From a bacterium (GTDB lineage Bacteria; Electryoneota; JAOADG01): a DNA stretch of 64,000 nucleotides. The stretch's first letter is position 1, and every line of letters begins with the position of its first letter. The notes beneath the pieces were generated by a model. That model searched no databases, was not told where the DNA came from, and saw only the letters and a program-made list of their open reading frames with translations. The position numbers were made by a program, and so were the translations under genes. Where the stretch lies: contig OY820579.1 of assembly GCA_963681965.1 (NCBI GenBank), positions 448,001 through 512,000 of the forward strand, given 5' to 3'. Below, piece after piece: positions 44,422 to 64,000 of this stretch.

Positions 44422-44666
44422 CACCGATTCTCGACTAAATCGTCGAATCCTAAATCGACTATTTCGTCGAGAACCGCAACAAATCATTATATGCGATTTT
44501 TAAGATTTTATTAATACAGATTTATAAATGTGGCACAACTTCTGCTAATGATAGAATCAGGGTTACGCTTTTCAATTGAATATTCCAATGGTAGCATTCG
44601 CAATCTCGCATGCAATGCACTTCGGTAATCTCAGTAATGATCCATCATCAGACAAGGAAGTACATC

Positions 44667-46226: not shown

Positions 46227-46302
46227 CACGTCAACCTTCTTTAAGAGTATCGCTGTCACCGGATCATCGCTCGCATGATACGATGACTAGGAAAGGACAA
46301 CA

Positions 46303-47247: not shown

Positions 47248-47270
47248 TCGACTTGAAAGACTGACTGACA

Positions 47271-49643: not shown

Positions 49644-49644
49644 C

Positions 49645-50166
49645 ATGAAGAACGCATACCGAATTTTTGTGATCATGATCATAGCGTTTGCATGCAATAC
49701 CGGATGCAAGAAGAACAGTAGTAACCCCGTGACACCGCAAGCGCCGATGCAGATGACAATCACTCCGGAGCGCATCCAAACAACGGTTGGGAGTAGTATT
49801 CAGCTTGAACTATCGCTCGCGAATGTAACGGGTTCGGTGTTCGCTGTTGCTACGCAAATTGAATACGACAATCGGGTATTGCAATTCGATTCGTCCGCTT
49901 CCGAGTCCGGTCTCTGGATCGGAAATAGTAGCATCAACTTCGCTCATGCCGATAGCGGTGTGATTCACCTTTCGATCTCCCGGCTTCGCGGCGATACACC
50001 GTGTTTGGGAAGCGGAACGATTGCACGGTTGAAATTCATCGCCATTTCCTCCGGTACGACACAAGTAACGGTACCGGTTGACCAATTGCATTTATACGAT
50101 TCCAATGGAACCGAACTCGGCAACACCGATCTTGATAGCGACAGCACTACTGTTATTGTGAATTAA
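49645..50166 (+). CDS. Cohesin-domain lipoprotein
   Basis: Lipoprotein signal (FAC/TGC); VGSSIQL, IEYDNRVLQF, GSGTIARLKF...SGT, LYDSNG cohesin pattern. Confidence 0.72.
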   Translation: MKNAYRIFVIMIIAFACNTGCKKNSSNPVTPQAPMQMTITPERIQTTVGSSIQLELSLANVTGSVFAVATQIEYDNRVLQFDSSASESGLWIGNSSINFAHADSGVIHLSISRLRGDTPCLGSGTIARLKFIAISSGTTQVTVPVDQLHLYDSNGTELGNTDLDSDSTTVIVN

Positions 50167-50214
50167 TCGTTCGAATTTCATCGTGATTTCGCAACGGCTA
50201 AAAGGACAATCAAA

Positions 50215-51300: not shown

Positions 51301-51309
51301 GCCGGCATC

Positions 51310-52059
51310 ATGTTTCAAGATAGTTTTCTTCGAAAAGAGTTGAAGTTTTACGTCCCGTCGCAGAAGATTGGACCGCTACGCAACTATATCCTGCGATACA
51401 TGGAATACGATCCATTTTGTATCGGTCGTCCCAATATGTTATACAGCGTCAGGAGTATTTATTTCGATACGCCCCATTATCTATTTTTCTTCGAAAAAAT
51501 CGGCGGTATTGATAAACGAAAAAAATTACGGATTAGAACTTACAACGAACCGAATGAATTTGCGCCGGCATTTTTGGAGATTAAGAATAAATTCACCGAT
51601 AACATTTTCAAAGAACGCGCCAAAGTGCCGTTAATGAATATTACCGAAGTGCTTGACGGATTCGATAATGAGACTGGTGAAAATGTTTCAACGGCATCGC
51701 GAAAAGCACTCAACAAATTTATCTTTCTTGTGCATGGTCTCAATCTAATCCCGCGAGTTCTTATTAGCTATGAACGGGAAGCATTCGTCGGTCTGGATGA
51801 CCCGGATGTCCGGATAACGTTTGACATCGACGTTCGCAGTTATCCCAACCCTTCACTGGACGACTTCTTTCGCGAAGCCGATTTGATTACGATTTCCGAC
51901 CCGTATTTCATCCTCGAAATAAAATTTTTCAATCGCATGCCGATCTGGACAAGACAGCTAGTCAGCACTTTCGGTCTCCAGCAAGAATCAATTTCTAAAT
52001 ACTGCAATGGATTGGAAGCTTGGGTTCCATCCTTGCAAGGATTAGGATCGCTCTTATGA
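51310..52059 (+). CDS. VTC-domain (TTM-fold) polyphosphate polymerase-like protein
   Basis: RKELKF, YSVRSIYFDT, RKKLRIRTY, FLEIK, YEREAF, RITFD, ILEIKF, SKY. Confidence 0.88.
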   Translation: MFQDSFLRKELKFYVPSQKIGPLRNYILRYMEYDPFCIGRPNMLYSVRSIYFDTPHYLFFFEKIGGIDKRKKLRIRTYNEPNEFAPAFLEIKNKFTDNIFKERAKVPLMNITEVLDGFDNETGENVSTASRKALNKFIFLVHGLNLIPRVLISYEREAFVGLDDPDVRITFDIDVRSYPNPSLDDFFREADLITISDPYFILEIKFFNRMPIWTRQLVSTFGLQQESISKYCNGLEAWVPSLQGLGSLL

Positions 52060-52739
52060 ACCTATTGAACAACGTTCCGTTAACCGCATATCCGTTGACG
52101 ATCATTGAGATTATTCTCAATCTTGGATTGGCATTTACGCTCGGTTTGACAATTACCGGTGTTTATCGACTCACCAATCGCAATCAACCAATCAGTTCAT
52201 CGTACGTCATAACGTTAGTCCTGCTGACGATGGTTATTGCGTTGGTAATGATGATTATCGGCAATAGTATCGCGCGGGCATTCGGTTTAGTCGGTGCATT
52301 ATCGATCATTCGATTCCGAACTGCAGTGAAAGACAATCGCGATATCGCCTACGTCTTTTTCGCGATTGCCGCCGGTATGGCTGCCGGTGTCGGCAATTAT
52401 CTCTTGTCAATCTACGGAGTCGGGTTCCTGTGTCTTTTGTTGTTGCTGCTCGATTTCTTGCATTTCGGAAGATCCCGCAGCGGGTTGTATGTTTTGCGAC
52501 TGCAAATGACACAAACCGCTTCTACCAATCACGATTTGGAAACGATTTTCAATCAGTATCTTTCCGACTTCCGGCAGCTAGCGTTGAAATCGATTCGGAT
52601 GGGCCAGATGCTGGAGTACACTTATAACGCTAAACTTCGAGATGTAAAAAAACTATCGGAATTTGTTACTACCCTGAGCACACTGGAAGGTGTCGAACGG
52701 GTCAATATGCTGGCGGACGACGAGGAACCGGAGTCGTAA
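52056..52739 (+). CDS. DUF4956 membrane protein
   Basis: IGNSIARAFGLVGALSIIRFRTAVKD signature, 4-5 TM helices; ATGA overlap with the VTC gene. Confidence 0.88.
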   Translation: MNLLNNVPLTAYPLTIIEIILNLGLAFTLGLTITGVYRLTNRNQPISSSYVITLVLLTMVIALVMMIIGNSIARAFGLVGALSIIRFRTAVKDNRDIAYVFFAIAAGMAAGVGNYLLSIYGVGFLCLLLLLLDFLHFGRSRSGLYVLRLQMTQTASTNHDLETIFNQYLSDFRQLALKSIRMGQMLEYTYNAKLRDVKKLSEFVTTLSTLEGVERVNMLADDEEPES

Positions 52740-52932: not shown

Positions 52933-54375
52933 TTAATCGCCATTCCGGTAGGTCACCACACGGTAGTAGTACTTTCCGGTAACATTATTGTCGGTGTAAG
53001 TAAAATTACTGGGACCCACCATAGCAAGATAGGTTCCTTCCAACGGTGGTGAAAAGTAACCCGAAGTTTCGCTACGGTAAATTTTAAATCCGTCCGCATA
53101 TCCACCATAGGTCCAGCTTAACGTCGCGCTCCCATTCGCATAGGTGATTACCAGCATCGTCGGTGGATCTGGACTAATTACTACGGCAAATTCGTGCAGA
53201 TAATAAAGCGACCACTTCCCCTGATTGTCGCGTACTCGCACATATAGTTGATGATTCCCAGGTGTGGTAGATCGTAAATCGGCAACGAATCCGCTCTCGA
53301 TCGAACTCCCCGGAGTGATCACGATACCGTGTCCACTACCAATTCCGGGATCGGTATCGATAAAATATTCCGCTGCCAAAATTTGTCCGGAAGTGGAGGG
53401 TGCCGGTTCCACGAGAAACGGTTTAACAATCGGCAAACTCCACTTACCCGAGTTATCGCGACTTCGGATATATAGTGCATGAAAGCCCAGCGATAAACCG
53501 GATAAATCGGCGGTAAAATTCGCATTAATGGTACTTCCCATGGTAATCGCAATGGGACGACCATTACCTAAACCGGGATCGGAATCGATAAAATATTCCA
53601 CCGCCGAGAGCAATGGATTGACAGGTATCGGTTCAACCAGAAAGGGTTTGACGAGAGTAAGACTCCATTTACCGTTATTATCGCGCGTCCTAACCGAGAG
53701 TGCGTGATATCCAACTGGAACAGTCGACAGATCGACAGTAAAATTGGTCGAAATCTCGCTCTCTGGCGTAAATGAAATCGCGTGTCCATTCCCATATCCG
53801 GGATCGCTATCGACAAAATATTCTGCTGCAGCAACAGTACCGTTCAACCGCAACGGTTCGACTAGAAACGGTTTTACAATTACCAAACTCCAGCGACCTC
53901 GATTGTCTTTCACACGGATCGATAATGAATGATAACCGATCGCAATTCCGCTTAAATCGGCAATGAAATTAGCAGAAATCGTACTATCGGTCGATACCGA
54001 AATCACTCGACCCAGCCCGTAACCGGGATCGGAATCGATGAAATACTCGGCAGCAGCAATTCGTACGGTATTTCCCGGAATTGGTTCGACTAGAAACGGC
54101 TTCATACTTGTGAGACTCCAGCGATTGGAATCGTCTTGGACACGAACATATAATGTATGATATCCGACGGATAAGCCATTCAGATTGGCAACGAAACTTA
54201 CATTGATTGACGTATCGCTAACGATTCCAACCGAATTTCCACTACCATATCCCGGATCGGTATCGATATAATATTCGACTCGCGTAACGCGAAAGGCGTT
54301 CACTGTTGACGGTATCATTACGCATGCGAGTATCAGTACAATTAGCACACAGATTGATTTCCGGAAGCTGAACAT
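52933..54375 (-). CDS. Secreted protein with five ~75-aa EYFIDxDPGxGxG Ig-like repeats and an FN3-like tail
   Basis: Repeats EY(F/Y)IDxDPG...G(Y/F)HxLxVRxxD..xWS; tail GFKIY...YYYRVV; AGGAGG RBS. Confidence 0.75.
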   Translation of the reverse strand: MFSFRKSICVLIVLILACVMIPSTVNAFRVTRVEYYIDTDPGYGSGNSVGIVSDTSINVSFVANLNGLSVGYHTLYVRVQDDSNRWSLTSMKPFLVEPIPGNTVRIAAAEYFIDSDPGYGLGRVISVSTDSTISANFIADLSGIAIGYHSLSIRVKDNRGRWSLVIVKPFLVEPLRLNGTVAAAEYFVDSDPGYGNGHAISFTPESEISTNFTVDLSTVPVGYHALSVRTRDNNGKWSLTLVKPFLVEPIPVNPLLSAVEYFIDSDPGLGNGRPIAITMGSTINANFTADLSGLSLGFHALYIRSRDNSGKWSLPIVKPFLVEPAPSTSGQILAAEYFIDTDPGIGSGHGIVITPGSSIESGFVADLRSTTPGNHQLYVRVRDNQGKWSLYYLHEFAVVISPDPPTMLVITYANGSATLSWTYGGYADGFKIYRSETSGYFSPPLEGTYLAMVGPSNFTYTDNNVTGKYYYRVVTYRNGD

Positions 54376-54386
54376 CTGTCACCTCC

Positions 54387-55394
54387 TTATGGACGAACTC
54401 GCGCACGGATATTTACCGGTAAGCCGCTGGTTGTGCCGCCTTGAGCCGGTCCGCTAAAGCTGGTGATCGTTGGGATCGGCGGCAATCCAGCAATGATATA
54501 CTGATTGGGTCCCCCGAAGATTCCACAGTCGGTTCCACCCCAACCGGCACCGATTGCTGGCGATCCGATGCGAAGTCGCAACTTATTCTCGGTAGTACCG
54601 GTGTCATTAAAAACCGTACTCATATTTACCAGTTGCAGGTTTCCGTTTCCAGTGGGACACTGAGTGCTATCGCACACATTGTTGAAAAACGTATTCGAGT
54701 TACCAGACCATCTTCCCAAACGAATGACGTTATTCATAAAATTGCCGTTGTATACAACAGCGTTGCCGGTGATAATGTTGTTGTATGCTTCTAGCGGTCC
54801 GGCACTCGTTTGCATATTGATGGCAACCGGTATGACATCGCGATTTTCTATATTGTTATTGAGTAGCAATACGTTACCGCGGGTGATCTGTAACAGCACA
54901 TACGAACTGGAGTATGGATAGCTCCGGTACAGGTAACACTGTTTGATTGTCACTTGATTGCAATTTATCGAGATTGTGTTGTAGTCCCAAGAAGAGATGT
55001 AGCATCGACTAATTTCGACACTATCGACGGAAATATCCAAAAGTGTATAGACGTAGATACCGCAAACAGTCGATTTCGTCGAGCTGTTCCGGAAGTACAA
55101 AGTACTGACGTATGCTCCTAGTGGTCGTGCCTGACTATCGGGGTTTTCGGTGAGTAAAAAACCCGGTCCGAAGATGTGAATCGGAATATCGACCGACCCA
55201 CCTCCGTAATTATTCTGGCTACCCACCATATAGATCGTATCGTGTGCCGATGAAGCGTTGAGCGCAAGTTGCAAAGTGCGGTATGAATTGCCATTGGCAG
55301 GATTATTGTCGACGACTCGGATGGTGCTGAATGCCACCGTTGAACAAGCCATCACAAACAACGTTGAGAATAAAATTCGCAAAGAATACTGCAT
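54387..55394 (-). CDS. Secreted right-handed beta-helix protein, paralog B
   Basis: VDNNP...LQLA...DTIY...GPG; Asn-rich coils; DCGIFGG; signal peptide. Confidence 0.7.
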   Translation of the reverse strand: MQYSLRILFSTLFVMACSTVAFSTIRVVDNNPANGNSYRTLQLALNASSAHDTIYMVGSQNNYGGGSVDIPIHIFGPGFLLTENPDSQARPLGAYVSTLYFRNSSTKSTVCGIYVYTLLDISVDSVEISRCYISSWDYNTISINCNQVTIKQCYLYRSYPYSSSYVLLQITRGNVLLLNNNIENRDVIPVAINMQTSAGPLEAYNNIITGNAVVYNGNFMNNVIRLGRWSGNSNTFFNNVCDSTQCPTGNGNLQLVNMSTVFNDTGTTENKLRLRIGSPAIGAGWGGTDCGIFGGPNQYIIAGLPPIPTITSFSGPAQGGTTSGLPVNIRARVRP

Positions 55395-55442
55395 TGAACT
55401 CTCCTTAAAAAAATTCCGATCGTGATTATCCCAAAGACGTTC

Positions 55443-56453
55443 TTAATTTCGTGCTCGTGCTCGGAAATTCACTGGCAATCCGTTGGTAGTGGAACCATTC
55501 ATCGATGCACCTAAGAAAGTGATGGTTGGGATCGCTGGAATTCCTGATAACACATAAGGATTGGCGCCGCCAAAAATCCCACAGTCGGTACCGTCGAAAC
55601 CAACCTGAGATGCAGGTGATCCCGATGCCAATTGCCAACGTCGTTCGGCAGTTCCCGAACCGACAAAAACCACCGACATGTTGACATAGCTTTGATTGTT
55701 GTTGGCTGTACCGAAGTGGTTGGAATATCCCAGATTGTTGAAATAATTGTTGTTATTTTGCGCGATGGAGTTGCTGTACAAGATGTTGTTCGTAAATGTC
55801 GTATTCCACAAATTGATGTTTCCACCGTTGAAAATACAATTCGTAACCGTAAAGGGTCCAGCATCGCCGTTGGAGTGTAGCAAACTTGAGTTGTTACCCG
55901 ATGAGTTTTGAAAGAACGTGTTTCGAATGAAGACGTTATGCGACGAGTTGAAAATGATGTTATTCACAGTCGCCCACCACGATATTTCGAAGAAGCACTG
56001 ATCGATAAACAGAACATTGACATTGTTCGCCGTCAAGTGCTGAACGGCATCGAATGCGATGCGGCAACGACGTATTGCGATACTGTCGGAATTAATCGTA
56101 ATCAATCCGGTAAGCGACAATCCCGAAAAACTTGCATTTTCCGAACCGGTATCGATCGTCAAAGTTCCTATACATGCGGCACTTGATAAAGCTTGCGATT
56201 CGGAATTATCGGATAAATAATAACCCGGTCCGATCCATACGAGCCGCTTATTGGTAACAAGATTACCGTAAGATGCTGACCAACCACAGACATAGATCGT
56301 ATCGCCGACATTCGCTAGATCGTGTGCTGCCTGAACAGTACGAGAGGCATTGACGTCAACGGGATTCCCGTCAACGATCCGGATCGTTGCGATTGCAAGC
56401 AGTGGAATAAACAGACAGAATAAAATCACAAGACTTCGGAAATGAATATCCAT
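55443..56453 (-). CDS. Secreted right-handed beta-helix protein, paralog A
   Basis: Colinear with 54387-55394 (DTIY, GPGY, DCGIFGG, GLPVNxRAR); AAGGAG RBS before 56453. Confidence 0.7.
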   Translation of the reverse strand: MDIHFRSLVILFCLFIPLLAIATIRIVDGNPVDVNASRTVQAAHDLANVGDTIYVCGWSASYGNLVTNKRLVWIGPGYYLSDNSESQALSSAACIGTLTIDTGSENASFSGLSLTGLITINSDSIAIRRCRIAFDAVQHLTANNVNVLFIDQCFFEISWWATVNNIIFNSSHNVFIRNTFFQNSSGNNSSLLHSNGDAGPFTVTNCIFNGGNINLWNTTFTNNILYSNSIAQNNNNYFNNLGYSNHFGTANNNQSYVNMSVVFVGSGTAERRWQLASGSPASQVGFDGTDCGIFGGANPYVLSGIPAIPTITFLGASMNGSTTNGLPVNFRARARN

Positions 56454-56660
56454 AGGATGCTCCTTTCGATATTTGACTAATGGCATATAATTAATCACAT
56501 ACCAGATTTTATTTCATCCCACTCAAGAGGTCAATTGAGATTGTAATCTGAACTAAAATTGACATATCCTACTAAATCGGTAGGATTTTCGTCTGTTCAT
56601 TGTTTTTCTAATTGGTTATTTCTGGAAATCGTGGCTGACGACGATTTTACCGCTAAAACG

Positions 56661-56690
56661 AAAACCAGCTAGCGACTCACTAGCTGGTTT
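56661..56690 (-). terminator. Terminator ending the glycan-biosynthesis operon
   Basis: AAAACCAGCTAG...CTAGCTGGTTT. Confidence 0.7.
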
Positions 56691-56711: not shown

Positions 56712-57713
56712 TTAATTTACTCGATTACGAGGAGGGTGTCCGGTCAGCACGCGTAATGCGCCTTGGGCAGCTTTACGCCGCATCTCTTCGAATGCCTCTT
56801 TACACCAGAATGCACCGTGGGGTGAAATGATCAGCCGATCGGTAATCCAATCTTCACCTTCGATCCATGCTTTAATCAAAGGGTGCTCGCGGTTAGGTGG
56901 TTCGTCAGGCAATACATCAAGACCTGCCCCGCGTAGATGTTTCGTGCGTAGTGCCGATTCAAGCGCATCCAGATCAACAATGCGACCGCGAGCGGTATTG
57001 ATGAAGAGCGAACCGCACTGCATTTTCGCAAAAAAGTCGACGTTCACCATACCGCGCGTTTCATCGGTTAATGGCGTGTGGATTGTCACGATATCTGCGC
57101 GCTGAAGCAATTCATCCAATGTCTCCGCGCGTTCAATCCCAAGCGCCTTATCAACTCCATCCGGTAAATAGGGATCGTAGAATAAAATGTGCAATCCGAA
57201 TCCCTGCGCTCGTCGGGCGACCGCAGTACCGATTCGTCCCAGACCGACAATTCCCAGCGTCGCCCCAGACAGTCGTCGCAAATTCCCCATCTGCTCCCAC
57301 GTCCAGTTGTCATTGCTCTTGCGAACACCGGAATTCCCGGCAGCAAGACCGCGTGAAAGCGCGAGAATAAATGCCATAGCATGATCGGCGACATCGCCGG
57401 TACCGTAATCGGGAACATTACACACCGGTATACCGAGTTGAGCGGCGGCGATTAAATCGATGTTGTCAAATCCAACACCGACTCGAACAATGACCTTGCA
57501 ATTTTTCATCTTGGCAATCGTCGCCGCATCAAGATAGAGATCGTGCCATGGCAAAATGGCATCGGCAACTGCCCATTCTTCATCGGAAATCTCGGAAACA
57601 TGATTGGCTTGCAGTAGTCGAATCTCTGCCAAGTCTCCAAAGACTTGTTGTTCAATATCTGCAGGTGGAGCTAGTCGATCGGGGATAAGTACGACAAATC
57701 GATTTTTGTTCAC
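56712..57713 (-). CDS. D-isomer-specific 2-hydroxyacid dehydrogenase (CtBP/SerA-like)
   Basis: RVGVGFDNID, GLGRIG, INTARG, GAGLDV..EPP, SPHGA. Confidence 0.9.
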   Translation of the reverse strand: MNKNRFVVLIPDRLAPPADIEQQVFGDLAEIRLLQANHVSEISDEEWAVADAILPWHDLYLDAATIAKMKNCKVIVRVGVGFDNIDLIAAAQLGIPVCNVPDYGTGDVADHAMAFILALSRGLAAGNSGVRKSNDNWTWEQMGNLRRLSGATLGIVGLGRIGTAVARRAQGFGLHILFYDPYLPDGVDKALGIERAETLDELLQRADIVTIHTPLTDETRGMVNVDFFAKMQCGSLFINTARGRIVDLDALESALRTKHLRGAGLDVLPDEPPNREHPLIKAWIEGEDWITDRLIISPHGAFWCKEAFEEMRRKAAQGALRVLTGHPPRNRVN

Positions 57714-57752
57714 GATAATCCTCGAATTGTTTATTGGTCTGAATGCGTTTGA

Positions 57753-58571
57753 TCAAACACCGCTACACAGATATGCAATCGCGGAACCTTTCCAGCGTGC
57801 AATCTCGCGAAAAGTGAAATTAGGATTCCGTTCACGCCACTCTTTGAACGCTCGAAACTCGCCATGATTCTCGGAACCCCGATAGCGGAACCAATCGTCG
57901 AATACAACATACGTTCCCATTTGCATCAAAGGGGTACAGAAATCGAGTGCCGTCACAGTGGATTCATACAAATCGCAATCGATGTGAATCACCGCTGCTT
58001 TGGTCAAATTCAAAGCTTTTCGGGTTTCTTCATTCAATGTGTCTTGGAAGTATCCCGGAATTGCCATAAAACTATCCGGTGCCATCCCCGATTCCAAACA
58101 ACGTTCGACAAATTTCTCGGCAGAAAACGCCATCGATCCACCCGACCAGTGTACCGGTCGTAAATCATCCCCATCGATTCCTTTTCCTTCAGGTAATCCT
58201 TTCTCGAAGGCATCGAACGCGAAAAACCGCATCGGTGGTGGTAAATATCCGGTCTGCTTCTGTTTCATCCCACTGTGCGAGAGTAACTGCTGAGTATTCT
58301 CGCGATAGGTCTTGGCTGCCATCCGGAAAGTGAAACCACCATAAGCGCCGAATTCGAGATAATCACCGGGTACGTTATTGAAAACGGCATTCATTACCGA
58401 AATAGAAATCGTATGAAGATTCTCAATAATTCGCGTATCGATCCACTCCTCGATATCCTTCCGCAAATCCCGCTTTAATGCATTCAACAAGGTGGTATAC
58501 ATAATCTCATTCGATGCTCCAGCATCCGGATTGGGAGTACTTTGATTGGGATTTGAAGAGGGTAGTGACAT
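57753..58571 (-). CDS. TylF/MycF/NovP-family O-methyltransferase
   Basis: GDYLEFG, FDAFEKGLP, GYFQDTL, HIDCDLYES, FDDW. Confidence 0.85.
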   Translation of the reverse strand: MSLPSSNPNQSTPNPDAGASNEIMYTTLLNALKRDLRKDIEEWIDTRIIENLHTISISVMNAVFNNVPGDYLEFGAYGGFTFRMAAKTYRENTQQLLSHSGMKQKQTGYLPPPMRFFAFDAFEKGLPEGKGIDGDDLRPVHWSGGSMAFSAEKFVERCLESGMAPDSFMAIPGYFQDTLNEETRKALNLTKAAVIHIDCDLYESTVTALDFCTPLMQMGTYVVFDDWFRYRGSENHGEFRAFKEWRERNPNFTFREIARWKGSAIAYLCSGV

Positions 58572-58592
58572 GGGTTTTCTCCACAAGAATTT

Positions 58593-59366
58593 TTATGATT
58601 TAGGGTGTACTAATTCGACTACCGATTGAACAGCACTGGCGAGAAGCGCACAATCGGCTTCATACGCTAGAAACTGAACACCCAATTCGATGTAGCGTCT
58701 CAAATCGTCTGGAGTCGATGCCAAACAACCGGCACTCACACCGGCGCTACGGATTCGTCCGATATTTTCCTTGACCAGCGCAACTACTTCCGGACGACGA
58801 ATTTCACCTGGAAAACCTGCCGCTTGACTCAGATCATAGATGCCAAGATAGATGACATCGACCCCCGGAACTGCGGCAATCCGGTCAAGATTCGCCAACC
58901 CCTCCTGACCCTCGACCAGCAGAATAACCATCGTCCGATCGTTTTCTCGCGAAGTTAAGGTAGCCGCATTCTGTGCGGTATATCCGCCACTACGGGTATA
59001 GGGCGATAATCCTCGGTGTCCGAGAGGATGATATTTCACCGCATCGACGGCGGCAATGGCTTGTGCTTCGGTCTGGATCTGAGGAACTACTATCCCGTGA
59101 ACTCCCGTTTCCAGTGCGCGGAGAATCAAACTCTCGTCTAACGTTGGTACACGAACGATCGGTGTTTTCCCTTCACTCTCAACCGCACGAACGGTGCTCT
59201 CGAGTGTTTCGAAGGTCGCCGGACCATGTTCCATATCGGTAATGATGAAGTCGAGCCCGGAGGCTGCCAACACGTTTGCGACACCATCGGAGGGTAGGAC
59301 GTTCCATGTCCCTACGGCAACACCGCCATTTTTTAATAACGGCTTCAAACGATTATCAATTCTCAT
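58593..59366 (-). CDS. HpcH/HpaI-family pyruvate aldolase
   Basis: DMEHG, IVRVP, GHRG, VEGQEGL, GIYDLS. Confidence 0.88.
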   Translation of the reverse strand: MRIDNRLKPLLKNGGVAVGTWNVLPSDGVANVLAASGLDFIITDMEHGPATFETLESTVRAVESEGKTPIVRVPTLDESLILRALETGVHGIVVPQIQTEAQAIAAVDAVKYHPLGHRGLSPYTRSGGYTAQNAATLTSRENDRTMVILLVEGQEGLANLDRIAAVPGVDVIYLGIYDLSQAAGFPGEIRRPEVVALVKENIGRIRSAGVSAGCLASTPDDLRRYIELGVQFLAYEADCALLASAVQSVVELVHPKS

Positions 59367-59367
59367 A

Positions 59368-60123
59368 TCACACCTTGTCGTAGGGAGTGGTTGTTTCGGT
59401 AAAGCCTTTGTCGCGCAACCAGTGTTCAATCACTGGAATCTGCCATTCATAATCGATATCGAAACCAAAATCGTTTTCCAGCGCGTGGCTGCGATGCCCC
59501 ATCCACCGGAACGGGAGTTGACCGTCGCGCCAATTTCGAAGACAGTGTGGTCGCAATACTTGTACTGCGAGATCGACGAAATAACAATCACCTTCACCAC
59601 CGCGAATCGACGACATCGAGCGGACATCGCCCAATTTTTCCAGATCGACATAGGGTTGAATCAAACCATCGGCATCGACTTTTCGTGCCCGTAATGGCGC
59701 CCACATATTGAATTTGCACACCGTGAATGCCGAGTCTAAATCCGGGTTCGAGCGCAACAACTCGATCGCTTCGTCGATCCGTCCAACCGGAATAGTGGGA
59801 GCATTTGCAAACATCAACACGATAAATTCGATCGATTCACCGATCCGCTTTTCCATTTCGATTAAAGCATGTTCGAGCGCGTCTTCCGTCAATGCTTCCG
59901 GGGTTGCTAAATATGCCGGTCGTTCGATCCATTCGGCGTTATAGCGCTTTCCGACTTCCGCAATATTCGGTGAATCTGTCGAGGTAAAAATTTTATCGAT
60001 GTATCGACTATGTTTTGCGGCAATAAATGTGTATTCCACCATCGGGCGGTTCAATACCGGTCGAACATTTTTTCCCGGACAACCCATGCTTTTATGCTTA
60101 CCGATTACTAATGCGCAAATCAT
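59368..60123 (-). CDS. NeuA/KdsB-family ulosonate cytidylyltransferase
   Basis: SMGCPGKN, TSTDS, IERPAYLA, FDIDYEW. Confidence 0.82.
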   Translation of the reverse strand: MICALVIGKHKSMGCPGKNVRPVLNRPMVEYTFIAAKHSRYIDKIFTSTDSPNIAEVGKRYNAEWIERPAYLATPEALTEDALEHALIEMEKRIGESIEFIVLMFANAPTIPVGRIDEAIELLRSNPDLDSAFTVCKFNMWAPLRARKVDADGLIQPYVDLEKLGDVRSMSSIRGGEGDCYFVDLAVQVLRPHCLRNWRDGQLPFRWMGHRSHALENDFGFDIDYEWQIPVIEHWLRDKGFTETTTPYDKV

Positions 60124-60875
60124 TCTTGACTCCCGAATTGTGTCGTAATTTCGTTTACGATATCGCGAAGCGAATCAATTCCCGGAAAATCGGTACACCC
60201 GACAATACGATGATACCCCCAACTCGCCCACCGGCAATTCACACCGGTCGGAGCGACTTCGCGCAAATGACCGGGATGATCATCGATAAAATAAACCCGA
60301 TCCGGAGTGGTGTTGTTCAAGCGGATGATTTCGAGGATCGCATCCGATTTCGATAACTCGCAATCACGGGCATAAATCCGATCTTCAATTAATCCCAGCG
60401 ACCACTCCCGGTTGAATCGCCGGATCGATTCGAGATCCTTCTTCGTAACGATATACAAAGATACTTGTTGAGACAGCTCCTGCCATCCCGCTAGCGACTC
60501 GTCATATCGCCGATGCAGTTTTATCCAGCCATCCCAATCGGTATCGCGATACCGGTTGCGTTCAACATAGAATTGCCGTTCGTACGCCGACATAAAATCG
60601 ATGCGACCGTTGCACATTTGTTGAAATGCAACCTCCGACAATTCGGTAATTCCCTGCTGAATCGCATCGATCAGAATTCCGTATTCTCCCGATGGACGCA
60701 CCAGATAGCGCAGTTTGTAAAACGTGTCGACAAAATCCCGCGGCAATTGGTCAGGGGTCGAATTGTTAGCCAACTTGCCATTCATCGATAGATAGGCATT
60801 CCAAGCCGTGACGAGACATTCGTCGATACTGTCGCAGATAACGCCATCGAAATCGAGAGCAATGATTGTTTTCAT
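60120..60875 (-). CDS. HAD-superfamily phosphatase
   Basis: LDFDGVICDS, IVT, K, FIDD, ASWGY. Confidence 0.85.
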   Translation of the reverse strand: MKTIIALDFDGVICDSIDECLVTAWNAYLSMNGKLANNSTPDQLPRDFVDTFYKLRYLVRPSGEYGILIDAIQQGITELSEVAFQQMCNGRIDFMSAYERQFYVERNRYRDTDWDGWIKLHRRYDESLAGWQELSQQVSLYIVTKKDLESIRRFNREWSLGLIEDRIYARDCELSKSDAILEIIRLNNTTPDRVYFIDDHPGHLREVAPTGVNCRWASWGYHRIVGCTDFPGIDSLRDIVNEITTQFGSQE

Positions 60876-60879
60876 ATTG

Positions 60880-61935
60880 TTAAATGAATTTCGCCATCAG
60901 ATCGACCATATCGACAACACGCTGGCTGTAACCAAGTTCATTGTCGTACCAGACAACCAGCTTGCAGAGACCCTCGGCATTTATTTTCGTCCACCGCGGA
61001 TCGAATACAAACGATTGTTCCATTCCGAGATAATCGATACTAACCAACTGTTCCTCATCATAACCGACAATCCGACGACTGCGATTCGACTCCATTTCAA
61101 ATACTTTATTGATTTCCGCTGCAGTTGGACGTTTGCTTAGTGCGATCGTGATATCGGATGTCGCAACGATCCCCGTAGGAATGCGAAATGAAATCGCGTC
61201 GACGCGCGCTGCGACTTCGGGTAAAACCACTTTTACCGCATCCAGTGCAGTGGTCTCTTTCGGAATTAAACTCATCGTCGTGGCACGACCGAGTGAAAAA
61301 TCCTTCCAGTAATGCCCCGGGCTGGAAACCGTTCGAACACTGCCGTCGCTAAGGTTCTGATACGACAACCACGGATGAAGAGTGGTCACAAAACCGTGCT
61401 CGACACCGAAATGACGTTGTAAAATATGCAGGGTCGGTGCGATGGCATTGGCATCGCAGATACTGGTCGATACAATGTCGTGCTTCGCGGGATCGTACGA
61501 ATCTTCATTCACTCCGAAGATAATCGTGTGATCCAATCCTTTGCGCGGGGCATGTGTGATGACTGTTTTTCGAACGGTACCGCGTCCAATCAGCGCTCTA
61601 GCATTCAATACATTCTGCTGCACGCCGGAAGCGTCGATTACGACATTGACACCCTGCTCTTCCCACGGCACATCGGCAATATTGTCTTTGCAATAAAACG
61701 CAATCTGGTCGCCATCGACAATCATTTTACCGAGTGCGTTTTCCGAAGCATCCTCGGCATGTATTTTTCCGGGGAATTTGCCATAATAACTGTCGTACTT
61801 CAGCAAGTATGCGTGATTCTTGACATTCGGATCCAAATCATTGATTGCGACGATCTGGAATCGGGGATTATTGGCATTTATCCGAAATACCGCTCGTCCG
61901 ATTCGCCCAAAACCGTTAATTCCGACTCGAATCAT
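60880..61935 (-). CDS. Atypical GAPDH/erythrose-4-phosphate-dehydrogenase-family aldehyde dehydrogenase
   Basis: GINGFGRIGR, AIND, WYDNELGYS; catalytic loop SICDANAIAP instead of ASCTTNCLAP. Confidence 0.8.
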   Translation of the reverse strand: MIRVGINGFGRIGRAVFRINANNPRFQIVAINDLDPNVKNHAYLLKYDSYYGKFPGKIHAEDASENALGKMIVDGDQIAFYCKDNIADVPWEEQGVNVVIDASGVQQNVLNARALIGRGTVRKTVITHAPRKGLDHTIIFGVNEDSYDPAKHDIVSTSICDANAIAPTLHILQRHFGVEHGFVTTLHPWLSYQNLSDGSVRTVSSPGHYWKDFSLGRATTMSLIPKETTALDAVKVVLPEVAARVDAISFRIPTGIVATSDITIALSKRPTAAEINKVFEMESNRSRRIVGYDEEQLVSIDYLGMEQSFVFDPRWTKINAEGLCKLVVWYDNELGYSQRVVDMVDLMAKFI

Positions 61936-61961
61936 TTGGATCTCCTCCGTTCGTACTGTGA

Positions 61962-63332
61962 CTATTTAGTGGGCAATGCTTTCGAAATAATCTTATCACT
62001 AAGTATTCTCGCTGTTCGTTCCGCCGAGCCCTCGGGAATACCGGTAACGAGGCGATAGTTTGCCATCACCGCTTCAGGAATTTGATGTGTTGTTCGATTC
62101 CATCCCGAAACAATTTTAGAGAGTGTTTCGATATCACCGGCATTTGCGACTAACCCTAACGCTTCGTAAATCGAACCACGGCGTCCATCGGCAAGCTGCC
62201 TGAATTCGAGGACCTGACCATCCTGTGGATAACGATAGTATTCCACCACCGGTACACCGACCGCCAATGCATCCATCACCCCCGACGAAAACATGCTGAT
62301 CACACCATCGGTCAGCGACGCTAGTTGCGTCAGCGAAAGGTGACTCATCATCCATTTATTTTTGGGAACCGCGTCGAACCAGTGCTCTAATTCAGCTTGA
62401 TCTTGTCGTGGGTGCGGTTTGATAATCGTAACGGTATCCGGAAGAGTCGCAATCAAATCGGCAAGTTGTCGCATCACGAATTGATAATCTTCGGTTTTGT
62501 GATACAACCGATGCGGTCCCCGGGTAATCAATAGAATTCGACGCGATGCCGAATTAGAAAAAATCATTTCCCGGCTATTCGTGAGCGCGGGATCGTGTAA
62601 CGATTCGTCAATCCACCAAGGATCGTACCGGGTACATCCGGCATGAACAATCCGATCCGGTGTTGAAAACTGCAGCGCCATCGGTTCCAATTCAGGAGAG
62701 GTGGTAAGCCATAGTTGGTGCGCTTTCCGTAACGATTGGTAGCCAATCTGGGTATCAGTCGAACTGTTGGCATAGTAGCGCGCAATCTCAGCGAGATCGT
62801 CGGTTCGACGGGTAATGATCGCAGTACCACTGGGGAATACAACTTCAATATTCGAATGGATTTGATTACGGAGTTCCCGATGTAACGCGACATCGGGATC
62901 ATCGGATCGAAGAAATAGCACGATATTGTTCGTATCGATCCGCGCTAGTGGATTGGTTTCCGAACAGGGAAGGACGTGCGCCACCGACTGTAATCGTGCG
63001 AAATGAAAGGACGCTTCGACTAATTTTTGTTGAATAATCGGGTGAATCAGCGCAACAATTGCAAATTCTGGATGTATTTCTTTGAGTTTGCACAGTACTG
63101 GCAATAACCAATCAACTTCACCAATCGAGGCATAAAACAATACCAAAATGATTGGCTGATTTTGGAAAGCGAATGGTCGAGGCAAATTTCTTGAAAGTAT
63201 ATCCGCTTCATTTGTCAAACCAGCCTGTCGCAACATCTTTTCGATCGCAACGACAGTTTCGATGGCAAGTGGTTTTTCCGCCAGTAATTGTTCCAAAATC
63301 GTAAAAAATCGAGGGAGATCCCCTCGATCCAA
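61962..63332 (-). CDS. Putative GT-B glycosyltransferase (KPHP-motif, CMP-sugar-acid / CDP-polyol transferase-like); start uncertain
   Basis: GCTRYD, IIKPHPRQ, SMFSSGVMDALAVGVPVV. Confidence 0.5.
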   Translation of the reverse strand: MDRGDLPRFFTILEQLLAEKPLAIETVVAIEKMLRQAGLTNEADILSRNLPRPFAFQNQPIILVLFYASIGEVDWLLPVLCKLKEIHPEFAIVALIHPIIQQKLVEASFHFARLQSVAHVLPCSETNPLARIDTNNIVLFLRSDDPDVALHRELRNQIHSNIEVVFPSGTAIITRRTDDLAEIARYYANSSTDTQIGYQSLRKAHQLWLTTSPELEPMALQFSTPDRIVHAGCTRYDPWWIDESLHDPALTNSREMIFSNSASRRILLITRGPHRLYHKTEDYQFVMRQLADLIATLPDTVTIIKPHPRQDQAELEHWFDAVPKNKWMMSHLSLTQLASLTDGVISMFSSGVMDALAVGVPVVEYYRYPQDGQVLEFRQLADGRRGSIYEALGLVANAGDIETLSKIVSGWNRTTHQIPEAVMANYRLVTGIPEGSAERTARILSDKIISKALPTK

Positions 63333-63511
63333 GGCAATTTGCGCTTCGATTGCTGATAATTTTGCAGATTTGTCAGTTACAAGCGTCGTTGCTTGATCTC
63401 CAATATTTCTTGTTGACTTTCTAATTAGCGTAAAATCAAGTTGCTCTGAATTGATTCACGCCAAATCGTCGATTTGGTTTACTAATATAGGAAGAGAAAA
63501 TTGAAATAATC

Positions 63512-64000
63512 TTAAAGATTCACCACTTTCCGTGGTTTCCGTTGATTGTATTGCACCACCGTCAATGGTTGGTACGGCTCCATCTGTTTGGTAACACAGA
63601 CCTTACATAATGTCCCATCGACGTTGTTATCCAAGTGGCGTTGTCGAAAATCTTTAAATACTTGACTATGCCACGCTTCGGCAAGTGTTACCTGATTCAA
63701 GTCGGCAACGATGAGTTGGTTTTCATAATCGACACAACAACAAGTGAGGAATCCTTCCCACGTGATATGAATCCGGTTGAACAGCATGGTGCACGGCAAC
63801 GGGGTGTTCATCGAATTGGTTGGACCGACTGCGCCGGTTTCCGGTATAAAACAGAGATCGTCGACAACTTTGCCAATCAGACGCTGGAGTTCGTCGGTTT
63901 CGTCGGCACATTCCGGAGTTACCACACAAGTCGCGAATAGCTTCAGCTTGGTGCCCATGGCTTTGCGACGCCGATCGATTTCCTTGATAACCTCGATCAC
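63512..64000 (-). CDS. Radical SAM protein C-terminus with SPASM/twitch domain, 5'-truncated by window edge
   Basis: PCTMLFNRIHITWEG.LTCCCVD...W.S...FR...LCKVC. Confidence 0.75.
   Translation of the reverse strand: MIEVIKEIDRRRKAMGTKLKLFATCVVTPECADETDELQRLIGKVVDDLCFIPETGAVGPTNSMNTPLPCTMLFNRIHITWEGFLTCCCVDYENQLIVADLNQVTLAEAWHSQVFKDFRQRHLDNNVDGTLCKVCVTKQMEPYQPLTVVQYNQRKPRKVVNL

Follow-up and report, generated by a model that had tools for sequence, protein, structure and literature searches.

In other pathways to CMP-activated 2-keto sugar acids, the acid is supplied by NeuB or KdsA. TagF, TarL and Bcs3 are GT-B proteins using cytidine-nucleotide donors, and the transferase encoded at the locus described here resembles them in its predicted fold. 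In Tannerella forsythia, the genetically supported Pse and Leg transferases are TagB-like HP-motif proteins of about 445 aa, according to PMC5420450. A literature search returned no paper describing the cassette presented below, which combines a NeuA-type cytidylyltransferase with a pyruvate aldolase, a HAD phosphatase and two dehydrogenases.

Organization of the Operon

The window, meaning the whole stretch of 64,000 nucleotides that was analysed (C1:448,001-512,000), contains most of an operon of eight genes, all on the minus strand, located from 56712 to 64558 by ORF coordinates and Pfam, thus extending 558 nt beyond the window edge. The initial annotation had named these eight gene types at this place, and Pfam and motifs bear it out; its radical SAM gene is indeed present, but cut by the window edge, as the whole gene ends at window-equivalent 64558.

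63512..64000, minus strand: radical SAM/SPASM (twitch) enzyme, C-terminal 162 aa (Pfam SPASM 2e-10)
61962..63332, minus strand: GT-B fold transferase with a KPHPRQD motif (motif and predicted fold)
60880..61935, minus strand: atypical GAPDH-family dehydrogenase (Pfam Gp_dh_N 1.9e-29, Gp_dh_C 3.2e-31)
60120..60875, minus strand: HAD-superfamily phosphatase (HAD_2 1.7e-4, kept HAD motif residues)
59368..60123, minus strand: NeuA-type cytidylyltransferase, clade "CTP3'" (CTP_transf_3 2.3e-11)
58593..59429, minus strand: HpcH/HpaI class II aldolase (HpcH_HpaI 2.6e-30)
57753..58586, minus strand: TylF-family SAM-dependent O-methyltransferase (TylF 1.9e-12)
56712..57713, minus strand: NAD-dependent D-2-hydroxyacid dehydrogenase, 2-HADH (2-Hacid_dh_C 4.4e-54, 2-Hacid_dh 2.6e-24)
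56662..56690 (L001 690-662), minus strand: terminator-like hairpin (13-bp stem, 6 G-C pairs)

The radical SAM gene is the first of the operon and the 2-HADH gene its last. From the GAPDH-like gene through the 2-HADH gene, intergenic gaps range from -4 to 39 nt, the HAD stop and the cytidylyltransferase start overlapping by 4 nt, and the true aldolase start is probably the ATG at 59366 (M22), immediately past the upstream stop codon. A promoter-like TTGACA-16-TAGAAT (11/12) precedes the radical SAM start, outside the window (window-equivalent 64868-64841). The hairpin lies 22 nt downstream of the 2-HADH stop codon and is suggestive by position only, because the terminator-like sites across the region do not exceed shuffles (10 found, 10.2 expected). 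The tight gaps and the promoter-like and terminator-like sites at the ends support a single operon-like block.

No NeuB or KdsA synthase had been seen near the operon, and this still holds for the 12 kb past the window edge and for the 28 ORFs of at least 120 aa that were searched with Pfam between window positions 25449 and 56498. The NeuB gene of this genome maps to C1:3,947,817, and two DAHP_synth_1 genes, of the KdsA/DAHP-synthase family, map to 1.609 and 2.967 Mb. The genome also holds a complete Pse cluster, at least 0.8 Mb from the operon (3.4 Mb on a linear contig, 0.8 Mb should the single contig be circular), with its own PseF-PseH fusion and an 804-aa protein having a weak HP-motif match (hhalign probability 34%); therefore, the operon has an activating enzyme and a transferase of its own.

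Features of the Core Enzymes

Each of the five core enzymes (GAPDH-like, HAD, cytidylyltransferase, HpcH and 2-HADH) retains its catalytic residues across 30-63 orthologues. The cytidylyltransferase matches CTP_transf_3 at 44.3 bits (Pfam cut-off 22.6), its best NCBIfam match is PseF (2e-20, far under the cut-off of that model), and its best PDB sequence match is the NeuA 9ftb (2.3e-16). In a structural comparison of its AF2 model (pLDDT 88.9), the top eight rows comprise only synthetases of CMP-Neu5Ac, CMP-Pse or CMP-Kdn (Z 21.3-25.4; 211-224 residues aligned), at least 2 units higher than KdsB (Z 19.1) and IspD (Z about 18-19), and at least 95% of 63 sequences retain residues D222 and D224. 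The PDB match and the model thus support the NeuA-like label given initially, pointing to a full-length NeuA-type enzyme, similar to CMP-nonulosonate/Kdn synthetases, of a distinct clade.

The aldolase scores from 1e-49 to 1e-39 against the NCBIfam HpaI, GarL and RhmA models, all under their cut-offs. At least 95% of 36 orthologues share its residues H68, R93, E173 and D199, whose counterparts in an alignment with DDG aldolase 1dxe are likewise H, R, E and D; this agrees with the initial HpcH assignment and supports a predicted class II (metal-dependent) pyruvate aldolase with retained catalytic residues. The phosphatase gene matches HAD_2 at 22.2 bits, slightly below the 23.8 cut-off, and at least 90% of 30 orthologues retain its N-terminal DFDGV motif together with residues D8, D10, D198 and D199.

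The GAPDH-like protein falls under the NCBIfam cut-offs for both GAPDH-I (277 versus 367) and Epd (225 versus 539), and a clade signature is present in 41/41 cassette copies (the window copy and 40 others), so that its description as atypical was well founded. In this signature, S-I-C-D replaces S-C-T-T (S148I, T150D) with Cys149 and H176 kept, T179 becomes leucine (isoleucine in L090), a 10-residue insert is present, and R194/R195 are replaced while R231 is kept; the housekeeping GAPDH of the same genome, unlike this enzyme, has the canonical residues. S148, T150 and R194/R195 are Pi-site residues of GAPDH, and the sequence suggests that the enzyme is probably a non-phosphorylating aldehyde dehydrogenase. 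Regarding the 2-HADH, its nearest solved relatives are CtBP (3e-60), the PGDH of M. tuberculosis (1e-46) and McyI (3e-45), its best NCBIfam match is PGDH (7.5e-70, under cut-off), and at least 95% of 38 orthologues retain R242, E271, H299, D180 and the GxGxxG motif.

Conservation of the Core and Its Relation to NeuB

Conservation was counted in 24 loci with at least 2.5 kb on either side of the cytidylyltransferase homologue, near-duplicates being L036/L037 and L041/L042/L044. Conserved synteny, proposed in the initial annotation as a check, was found for the five-gene core, whose gene order and strand are identical in 18 of the 24 loci, an arrangement well beyond chance. By gene, the presence is 21 for GAPDH-like, 17 for HAD, 19 for HpcH and 23 for 2-HADH, with GAPDH-like, HpcH and 2-HADH together in 19/24. 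The 2-HADH is at most 4 kb away from the cytidylyltransferase in 23/24 loci, and it is this enzyme, and not the aldolase, that is the steadiest partner of the cytidylyltransferase. L073, L080 and L089, whose flanks extend about 7-10 kb per side, are devoid of GAPDH-like and HpcH, so the aldolase is dispensable for some members; in a quick tree, these loci nest within the aldolase-type clade. GAPDH-like and HpcH are gained or lost jointly, and 2-HADH stays with the cytidylyltransferase. These 18 loci are from Desulfobacterota and marine metagenomes. Among the carriers are a second genome of the phylum of the window (L002 = G070), the Desulfobacterota MAGs L003 and L004 and many low-GC marine contigs, and the neighbours at other loci are glycan genes (flippases, GT1/GT2/GT4/GT9, NDP-sugar enzymes).

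The cassette is often found inside Pse/Leg/Neu-type nonulosonic-acid (NulO) islands, as in L003, L004, L039, L043, L059 and L090, which possess NeuB and, in addition to the cytidylyltransferase of the cassette, a canonical one; there, it may serve these pathways instead. NeuB is present in 7/8 distinct carrier genomes that were searched (G000, G070 = G079, G080, G081, G122, G142, G229, G303). In genome G438, the only NeuB matches are near 1e-13, and in G000, a match of about this strength falls on a DAHP_synth_1 gene. Five Desulfobacterota genomes possess the cytidylyltransferase and 2-HADH with neither a cassette-type GAPDH nor an adjacent HpcH, NeuB being within 20 kb in four. Cytidylyltransferases of the same clade (41-49% identity) are 2.6-18.5 kb from NeuB in four Desulfobacterota genomes; these carry no cassette-type GAPDH on the same contig, and HpcH occurs in only one of them, 12 kb off. 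Such pairs fit the view that HpcH with GAPDH-like, on one side, and NeuB, on the other, are alternative acid suppliers.

Lineage-Specific Enzymes

Three products of the operon (methyltransferase, GT-B transferase and radical SAM enzyme) are lineage-specific additions. The TylF gene (47.4 bits, cut-off 23; also Methyltransf_24 8.3e-7) has no homologue in 71 related loci by tblastn, and in L002, the aldolase and 2-HADH genes adjoin; it is a lineage-specific insertion between these two genes. The transferase and the radical SAM gene are each found in 4/71 loci. The full-length radical SAM protein has 348 aa (Radical_SAM 1e-21, SPASM 1.9e-9), its C-terminal domain has BtrN as its best solved relative (E 1e-6), the radical SAM genes of L003 and L004 share 48-53% identity with it, and P0006-P0009 are radical SAM relatives fused to the GT-B transferase.

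The transferase has no Pfam or NCBIfam match, and its residues K305, H307, P308, R309 and Q310 are invariant in 12/12 relatives; one relative (P0004) has a precomputed Glyphos_transf match. Its AF2 model (pLDDT 84.8) aligns by VIA-align with a UDP-GlcNAc 2-epimerase (Z 22.5, 334 aligned, rmsd 4.0), TagF 3l7k (Z 21.4, 349 aligned, rmsd 5.6), TarL (Z 21.1) and Bcs3 with CMP (Z 21.1); for the TagF-like domains of both Bcs3 and Cps3D, Z is about 21. The protein resembles TagB/TagF and is the candidate CMP-dependent transferase.

Proposed Pathway and Alternative Explanations

The reading to which we give somewhat better than even chances is that the operon encodes a self-contained, NeuB/KdsA-free route that yields a CMP-activated 2-keto (ulosonic-type) sugar acid and transfers it to a surface glycan, whose steps we infer from the gene content, conservation, catalytic residues and folds given above. 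The class II aldolase would condense pyruvate, or less likely hydroxypyruvate, with an aldose or aldose phosphate into a 4-hydroxy-2-keto acid, the HAD enzyme would strip the terminal phosphate, and the cytidylyltransferase would form the CMP-sugar. The GAPDH-like enzyme, having lost its phosphate-attack site, would irreversibly convert an aldehyde into a carboxylate and the 2-HADH would interconvert α-hydroxy and α-keto acid, both acting on the precursor or tailoring the acid. In this lineage, the TylF enzyme may then O-methylate the sugar, the HP-motif GT-B enzyme may transfer it from CMP, and the BtrN-like radical SAM enzyme may add a redox or epimerisation step. Catabolic cleavage pathways follow the same logic in pairing an HpcH aldolase with an aldehyde dehydrogenase, and the synthetic direction of the aldolase is put forward as a proposal.

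A different function, possible although we consider it unlikely, is that of an accessory of Pse/Leg-type NulO biosynthesis, adding a small hydroxy-acid substituent (e.g., glyceroyl-like) or remodelling the NulO, the NulO so modified being activated by the second cytidylyltransferase and transferred by the HP-motif GT-B enzyme. CMP-NulO synthetases are the best structural matches of the cytidylyltransferase, GAPDH, HAD and 2-HADH all belong to C3 acid chemistry, and the genome of the window has its complete Pse cluster. The cassettes of L003 and L004 are contiguous with PseG, PseI, HisF-type amidotransferase, PseB and PseC genes, L039 is accompanied by a relative of the BFO_1060 family (T. forsythia Leg transferase), and NeuB occurs in 6/24 well-flanked loci and within 20 kb on the same contig in 5/6 sampled Desulfobacterota carriers. 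Likewise, GT-B relatives lie 2-8 kb from distant CTP_transf_3 homologues (23-30% identity to that of the operon) in 12 loci (L005, L007-L011, L013, L014, L016-L018), and PMC5378307 described the origin of the N-glyceroyl group on Pse as unknown in 2017. However, that Pse cluster is distant and has its own PseF, the cassettes of the window and L002 are without NulO genes in the DNA seen, NeuB is absent within 10 kb on either side in L037, L039, L042, L044, L051 and L085, and G438, a possibly incomplete genome, has the cytidylyltransferase with no strong NeuB match. Moreover, known N-acylation chemistry would seem to have no role for an aldolase and a second CMP-activating enzyme, and no acyl-carrier or acyltransferase domain is found by Pfam in the eight genes.

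It is improbable that the operon instead makes a cytidine-nucleotide-linked small hydroxy acid (phosphoglycerate, glycerate), used by the TagF-like enzyme for a phosphodiester decoration in teichoic-acid style. The alignments with TagF, TarL and the TagF-like domains, the Glyphos_transf match of P0004 and the PGDH match of the 2-HADH agree with it, as GAPDH-like, HAD and PGDH-like enzymes use C3 phospho-acids; but the cytidylyltransferase is NeuA-type (Z 21-25) and not of the CDP-alcohol-making IspD/TarI type (Z about 18-19), the aldolase is left without explanation, the window protein itself has no Glyphos_transf match in Pfam, a TagF-like gene accompanies the cassette in only 4/71 loci, and the fold does not single out phosphotransfer because UDP-GlcNAc 2-epimerases tie with TagF. 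Very improbable is the reverse use of the aldolase, where a 2-keto-3-deoxy acid would be cleaved into pyruvate and an aldehyde, the latter oxidised by the GAPDH-like enzyme, and the shortened acid converted by 2-HADH into a non-3-deoxy 2-ulosonic acid, then CMP-activated. GAPDH-like followed by 2-HADH would mirror Epd followed by PdxB, and this use matches the joint gain and loss of GAPDH-like and HpcH, 2-HADH staying with the cytidylyltransferase. In P0051, a GAPDH-like protein is joined to an FAH-family domain (HpaG-like 8.4e-45; 2,4-didehydro-3-deoxy-L-rhamnonate hydrolase-like 1.2e-31), and an FAH hydrolase is the alternative to aldolase and aldehyde dehydrogenase in non-phosphorylative deoxy-sugar catabolism. 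However, this fusion is known from one cluster alone, on a contig of 3 kb, no 2-keto-3-deoxy acid can be proposed as the starting compound, and cleavage seems unnecessary, because G3P, E4P and A5P would already be available in the cell.

Returning to the NeuB/KdsA-free route, the roles of the GAPDH-like enzyme and 2-HADH are not accounted for by a simple KdsA/KdsC/KdsB analogy. The initial annotation had suggested, speculatively, a 3-deoxy-2-ulosaric acid such as Dha as the product, reached by oxidation of E4P or G3P, dephosphorylation, a redox step and the aldol reaction; judging from family chemistry, Dha from E4P would need a primary-alcohol oxidation, for which a 2-hydroxyacid dehydrogenase would be an unexpected enzyme type. 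As for the remaining steps, the aldolase would fill the role that NeuB or KdsA has elsewhere, the HAD step would be comparable to those of KdsC, NANP and Kdn-9-P phosphatase, and the transferase shares the GT-B fold of TagF, TarL and Bcs3 and carries the HP motif.

Organization of the Operon and Its Surroundings

The operon consists of eight genes on the minus strand, between positions 56712 and 64558, where positions above 64000 fall beyond the window edge.

Genes of the operon (window-equivalent coordinates; assigned by family searches, except the 456-aa protein, which is without family matches)
63512-64558, minus strand: radical SAM/SPASM enzyme (rSAM)
61962-63332, minus strand: 456-aa protein, GT-B transferase candidate
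60880-61935, minus strand: GAPDH-like enzyme
60120-60875, minus strand: HAD protein
59368-60123, minus strand: CTP_transf_3 cytidylyltransferase (CTP3')
58593-59429, minus strand: HpcH aldolase
57753-58586, minus strand: TylF methyltransferase
56712-57713, minus strand: D-2-hydroxyacid dehydrogenase (2-HADH)

The observation of an eight-gene run in the initial annotation is borne out, as all the gene types that it named are found on this strand. From the GAPDH-like gene to the 2-HADH gene, neighbours either share 4 nt or stand 4-39 nt apart. The annotated start of the aldolase is a TTG codon, giving a 62-nt overlap with the upstream gene; judging from the sequence, an ATG at residue 22, directly adjoining the stop codon of the gene before it, is the likelier start. 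Ahead of the rSAM start stands TTGACA-16-TAGAAT, the strongest promoter-like site of the region, and a 13-bp hairpin with a T-rich tail stands directly 3' of the 2-HADH stop codon. The counts of both kinds of sites in the region show no excess over shuffles, so that only their positions are suggestive. Rfam gave no match at gathering score in positions 1-9600 of L001, the locus of the operon.

A NeuB or KdsA synthase had been considered possible just past the window edge; none is found in the operon or in the 12 kb beyond the window. The window spans C1:448001-512000; the NeuB of its own genome (G000) lies on the same contig at C1:3,947,817, and two DAHP_synth_1 genes are located at 1.609 and 2.967 Mb. 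Past the operon there are a divergent Methyltransf_3 O-methyltransferase gene, a HEAT-repeat protein with a signal-like N-terminus and two class I methyltransferases (L001 8862-12185, window-equivalent 64862-68185), as well as a Rex-like regulator and gyrA. On the other side, immediately 3' of the operon, a separate promoter-like site precedes three minus-strand genes in a row (52933-56498; 480, 335 and 351 aa), whose products begin with signal-peptide-like segments and could be placed in no family with confidence; these genes are not found beside the cassette (GAPDH-like, HAD, CTP3', HpcH and 2-HADH) in other loci. Elsewhere in the window, a 2497-aa protein on the plus strand (26497-33990) bears beta-helix/NosD-like repeats, a CarboxypepD_reg domain and a T9SS C-terminal sorting domain, and a string of secreted or unusual genes is found at 44610-52739.

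Genes within 44610-52739, plus strand
Arylsulfotransferase with a T9SS tail
FGE-sulfatase-like protein
CotH kinase with LTD and a T9SS tail
Cohesin-domain protein
VTC-domain protein
DUF4956 protein

Other readings of the operon were considered and rejected. A RiPP pathway, in which the radical SAM/SPASM enzyme and the transferase modify a peptide, was rejected, since the 179-nt gap between both genes has no minus-strand ORF of at least 20 aa and the same gap measures only about 60 nt in the related locus L002. A phosphonate route was dropped because the PEP mutase domain is found in none of the eight operon genes. Regarding a FkbH-type glyceryl route, the HAD protein reaches 15 bits against the FkbH domain (E 0.0095; cut-off 147), and a carrier-protein domain is absent from all eight genes.

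Conservation and Spread of the Five-Gene Core

When the transferase alignment was run against species-representative genomes, 21 loci were retrieved, and tblastn finds the full set in three of them. L002, from a genome of the window's phylum (G070, the same as G079), carries the rSAM, transferase, GAPDH-like, HAD, CTP3', HpcH and 2-HADH genes at 38-68% identity. L003 and L004, both from Desulfobacterota MAGs, carry GAPDH-like, HAD, CTP3', HpcH, 2-HADH and transferase genes, with the rSAM 6-9 kb downstream of CTP3'. Additionally, a metagenome scan using an alignment of the four CTP3' sequences yielded 68 loci, most of them on low-GC marine contigs.

For counting, 71 loci with a CTP3' homologue at least 40% identical were considered, 24 of which have at least 2.5 kb on both sides. 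Within 4 kb of CTP3' in these well-flanked loci, the GAPDH-like enzyme is present in 21, HAD in 17, HpcH in 19 and 2-HADH in 23; GAPDH-like, HpcH and 2-HADH occur jointly in 19, and in 16 of those HAD is detectable as well. The core of the gene set that the initial annotation had read as one pathway is conserved together, with core order and strand kept in 18 of the 24, the independent number of loci being somewhat lower because L036/L037 and L041/L042/L044 are near-identical. Among all 71 loci, TylF is found in none, the transferase in four (L002, L003, L004 and L043) and rSAM in four; this rarity indicates that the conserved unit is the five-gene core, the other three genes being add-ons of this lineage. 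The spread is patchy, comprising 2/79 genomes of the window's phylum and 6/401 sampled Desulfobacterota. Overall, the cassette is real, conserved and uncharacterised.

The Predicted Activating Enzyme CTP3'

CTP3' matches Pfam CTP_transf_3 with 44.3 bits, above the 22.6 cut-off, and does not reach equivalog level in NCBIfam, with 73.4 bits for the PseF model (cut-off 205.7) and 20-34 bits for the KdsB models (cut-offs 193-255). Its sequence matches to NeuA and PseF cover only the first 158 residues. The AF2 model (pLDDT 88.9) superposes over the whole length on CMP-Neu5Ac, CMP-Pse5Ac7Ac and CMP-Kdn synthetases, which occupy the top eight rows of the structural search (Z 21.3-25.4), including 6ifd (Z 25.4, 214 aligned, rmsd 3.3), 9ftc (Z 23.3, 224 aligned, rmsd 2.4) and 9t4z (Z 23.3), compared to Z 19.1 for KdsB and about 18-19 for IspD. 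The identity to the solved enzymes is only 18-25%. Taken from sequence and model, CTP3' is predicted to be an activating enzyme of NeuA type, in a distinct clade.

In its relatives P0133 and P0139 (471-486 aa), a cytidylyltransferase of the CTP3' clade is extended at the C-terminus by a further domain that matches Methyltransf_23 weakly (23.9 bits, cut-off 27), and methylation may be coupled to activation there. The relatives of 471-486 aa had been considered as HAD-cytidylyltransferase fusions and have no HAD part (BLASTP E 0.29); P0138 as an aldolase fusion was ruled out as well.

A GAPDH Paralogue with a Remodelled Phosphate Site

The GAPDH-like enzyme is about 40% identical to solved GAPDHs and scores under the cut-offs of both GAPDH-I TIGR01534 (277 bits versus 367) and Epd NF010058 (225 versus 539). 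According to the alignment with 1hdg, the catalytic Cys149 and His176 are retained in 41/41 cassette copies, as is R231, and a 10-residue insert follows His176. In the same 41 copies, S-I-C-D replaces the S-C-T-T of GAPDH (S148I, T150D), R194/R195 are changed to S/A-L, and T179 is replaced, by L in 40 and by I in L090. The housekeeping GAPDH of G000 (3.04 Mb, 34% identical to the GAPDH-like enzyme) bears the canonical residues. Since S148, T150 and R195 make up the inorganic-phosphate site of GAPDH, their loss predicts thioester hydrolysis, that is, an irreversible oxidation of aldehyde to acid. Epd from E. coli also has a hydrophobic residue at 179 (M) but retains SCTT and RR, so the cassette clade is neither GAPDH nor Epd.

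At least 120 clusters at 47-64% identity occur in the protein collection, with source names such as 'aldehyde dehydrogenase' or 'GAPDH'. One protein of 612 aa, P0051, fuses a GAPDH-like domain of cassette type to a FAH-family domain resembling HpaG and 2,4-didehydro-3-deoxy-L-rhamnonate hydrolase, a fusion that may hint at the origin of the aldehyde.

Aldolase, HAD Protein and 2-HADH

The aldolase matches the HpcH_HpaI model with 105.8 bits (cut-off 25), and its H68, R93, E173 and D199 line up with the active-site and metal-binding positions of DDG aldolase (1dxe) and HpaI. At least 95% of 36 orthologues retain these four residues, which correspond to the catalytic His, the catalytic Arg and two acids that bind the metal. 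The HAD protein stands slightly below the cut-off of Pfam HAD_2 (22.2 bits versus 23.8), and its motif I DxD and motif IV acidic pair (D8, D10, D198 and D199) are present in at least 90% of 30 orthologues. Regarding 2-HADH, both domains, R242, E271, H299, G157/G159/G162 and D180 are present, with an NAD-type Rossmann motif. It reaches no equivalog cut-off (236 bits for PGDH, cut-off 454), and the closest solved proteins, CtBP, PGDH and McyI, do not fix its substrate.

The Candidate Transferase and the Radical SAM Enzyme

The 456-aa transferase has no match in Pfam or NCBIfam, including Glyphos_transf at E ≤0.01 and NF046086 (the BFO_1060 family) at E ≤0.001. Only 12 relatives, mostly unnamed, are found in a collection of 5.8 billion proteins; one of the 12 has a precomputed PF04464 match, and a relative in L039 scores 37.8 bits against NF046086 (cut-off 200). 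Its model (pLDDT 84.8) has a GT-B fold, and the fold search ends in a tie between UDP-GlcNAc 2-epimerases (Z 22.5), TagF (21.4), TarL (21.1) and the CMP-bound capsule polymerase Bcs3 (21.1), with many GT1 enzymes at Z 19-20. The motifs KPHPRQD and SSG..D, invariant in the relatives, recall the HP motif of sialyltransferases, as well as that of the TagB-like Pse/Leg transferases of Tannerella forsythia, as far as the available part of that source describes it (PMC5420450).

The rSAM possesses both the core and the C-terminal auxiliary-cluster domain (Radical_SAM 78.3 bits, SPASM 38.1 bits) and reaches no equivalog level; among solved structures, its auxiliary-cluster domain matches the carbohydrate dehydrogenase BtrN best (E 1e-6). 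Four of the 12 transferase relatives (P0006-P0009, 728-754 aa) are fused to a radical SAM/SPASM domain, which suggests that the two separate genes of the window (61962-64000) probably cooperate.

Nonulosonic-Acid Surroundings and Loci Lacking the Aldolase

PseG, PseI, HisF-type amidotransferase, PseB and PseC genes directly adjoin the cassette in both L003 and L004, and L004 has an additional, canonical CTP_transf_3 gene. NeuB, often with a NeuC-type epimerase, is found in the marine loci L031, L032, L043, L059, L062, L080, L087 and L090, and a second cytidylyltransferase in L039, L043, L059 and L090. Among six sampled Desulfobacterota carriers, five have NeuB within 20 kb on the same contig. 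In L100 (genome G142) the order is rSAM, CTP3', HAD_2, cyclase, 2-HADH and NeuB, and tblastn finds no PseB, PseC or PseF there. L037 and L087 have genes of heptose type on the flanks of the cassette (SIS_2, HldE-like kinase, HAD_2, NTP_transferase and GHMP kinase), and L089 has them next to the aldolase-less pair; judged by its ORF layout alone, L051 is arranged in the same way.

A second cassette type, lacking both HpcH and the GAPDH-like gene, is observed in the marine contigs L069, L073, L080 and L089 (also L063 and L070), L073, L080 and L089 being well flanked. Of the core it has only CTP3' and 2-HADH, followed by an unassigned 340-349-aa protein and then a 142-aa protein; a HAD_2::NTP_transferase fusion occurs in L069, L080 and L089, and GT9 or SIS_2 genes adjoin this cassette in L073 and L089. 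The 349-aa protein was rejected as a diverged GAPDH (BLASTP E 0.94), and the Atlas points only weakly to a glycosyltransferase-like protein (0.94, with GT11 among 17% of the members). In a quick tree with SH-aLRT support and midpoint root, the aldolase-less loci nest within the aldolase-type clade. Five Desulfobacterota genomes carry CTP3' at 41-49% identity; in these, all GAPDH matches are on other contigs at 38-40% identity, presumably being the housekeeping enzyme, and HpcH is found in G303 only, 12 kb from CTP3'.

Possible Pathways

The acid for CTP3' is apparently supplied in different ways, CTP3' standing beside NeuB in some genomes and served by the HpcH/GAPDH-like/HAD trio elsewhere, apparently including most marine loci and the window, with 2-HADH being a predicted requirement under either supply. 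HpcH, HAD and CTP3' would be the counterparts of the synthase, phosphatase and CMP-synthetase of the Kdo, Kdn and sialic acid pathways. As for the GAPDH-like enzyme and 2-HADH, they could introduce a second carboxylate, perform an Epd/PdxB-like conversion of an aldose phosphate to a 2-keto acid, or provide a hydroxypyruvate donor. The second carboxylate corresponds to the ulosaric acid of the initial annotation, whose general idea remains plausible; its specific product is unsupported. Dha from E4P would need the oxidation of a primary alcohol, for which the operon has no obvious enzyme.

Tentatively, and with considerable doubt, the cassette can be read as a NeuB-independent, aldolase-driven route to an undescribed CMP-activated keto-sugar, sialic-acid-like or ulosaric, where a GAPDH paralogue without the phosphate site would supply an extra carboxylate or an unusual precursor. 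If so, marine bacterioplankton and sulfate reducers would commonly possess this route, and it and NeuB could replace each other as suppliers to one CMP-synthetase clade. The main rival, that the cassette serves nonulosonic acid pathways, draws on the genes of these pathways around it in L003, L004, the marine loci and the Desulfobacterota carriers, and is regarded as rather unlikely, as the full Pse cluster of G000 (L029, C1:3936001-3956000) is at least 0.8 Mb away from the operon and has its own PseF. That cluster comprises PseB, PseI, a PseF-PseH fusion, PseC, a WbuX-type amidotransferase, HisH/HisF, PseG and a methyltransferase, along with an 804-aa protein having a C-terminal Methyltransf_23 domain and a GT-B-like region with a weak HP-motif match (hhalign probability 34%). 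The operon, in turn, has its own predicted activating enzyme and its own candidate CMP-type transferase; set beside the PseF and the weakly matching 804-aa protein of the Pse cluster, this inclines us slightly towards an autonomous second CMP-sugar route in G000. A teichoic-like decoration with a phospho-hydroxy acid is improbable, and a route that opens with cleavage by the aldolase is very improbable.

Significance

CMP-activated keto-sugar acids, such as Kdo and the sialic, pseudaminic and legionaminic acids, are capping residues of surface glycans in bacteria and influence how phages, predators and immune systems recognise their carriers. To our knowledge, all described routes to them depend on a PEP-dependent synthase of the NeuB/KdsA type. 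A cassette replacing or supplementing this enzyme, here by a class II pyruvate aldolase with a remodelled GAPDH and a 2-hydroxyacid dehydrogenase, would widen the chemistry and enzymology of this sugar class. With 68 loci in a single scan, low-GC marine contigs commonly carry the cassette, so its product may be a frequent, unrecognised component of marine cell surfaces. A literature search, with subscription journals outside its coverage, returned no relevant description of HpcH with a cytidylyltransferase or nonulosonic acids, of the five cassette genes together, of HpaI/sialic acid/pyruvate aldolase or of heptulosaric acid. Untargeted work describes unassigned CMP-linked alpha-keto acids in environmental bacteria and Magnetospirillum, and the available part of that source names no genes behind them (bioRxiv 10.64898/2026.04.20.719630); the cassette offers a concrete gene set to compare with those masses.

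Comparison with Known Systems

The operon resembles the phosphorylated pathways of sialic acid (NANS-NANP-CMAS) and of Kdn in Bacteroides thetaiotaomicron (Kdn-9-P synthase, HAD phosphatase and CMP-Kdn synthetase), having a HAD phosphatase followed by a NeuA-type cytidylyltransferase and a CMP-linked alpha-keto sugar acid presumably passed to a glycan. It differs by having a class II pyruvate aldolase in place of the NeuB-family PEP-dependent synthase, and by the addition of a non-canonical GAPDH and a D-2-hydroxyacid dehydrogenase. The CMP-Kdo pathway (KdsD-KdsA-KdsC-KdsB) is similar in that a C3 donor and an aldose phosphate are followed by a HAD phosphatase and a CTP_transf_3 enzyme; however, the operon lacks KdsA, and CTP3' is closer to NeuA than to KdsB (Z 25.4 versus 19.1).

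Epd, the erythrose-4-phosphate dehydrogenase, and PdxB act in PLP biosynthesis, where a non-phosphorylating dehydrogenase of the GAPDH family is likewise followed by an enzyme of the 2-HADH family. Both Epd and the cassette enzyme have a hydrophobic residue for T179 (M and L, respectively); S-C-T-T and R194/R195 are intact in Epd, whereas in the cassette clade the motif reads S-I-C-D, neither arginine remains and the 10-residue insert is present, and the scores are under the Epd and PdxB cut-offs of NCBIfam.

Tanf_01245 and BFO_1060 of T. forsythia are described, in the available part of the source, as transferases of Pse/Leg derivatives of about 445 aa with a GT-B/TagB-like domain and the HP motif, their genes adjoining the CMP-NulO pathway (PMC5420450). 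The candidate transferase of the operon also has a GT-B fold and an HP motif but does not match the BFO_1060 model. Finally, the catabolic aldolases HpcH/HpaI, GarL and RhmA belong to the same family and have the same catalytic residues as the operon aldolase, which stays under all equivalog cut-offs (HpaI 169 versus 369) and stands in a context of glycan biosynthesis, whereas HpaI, GarL and RhmA act in aromatic and sugar-acid catabolism.
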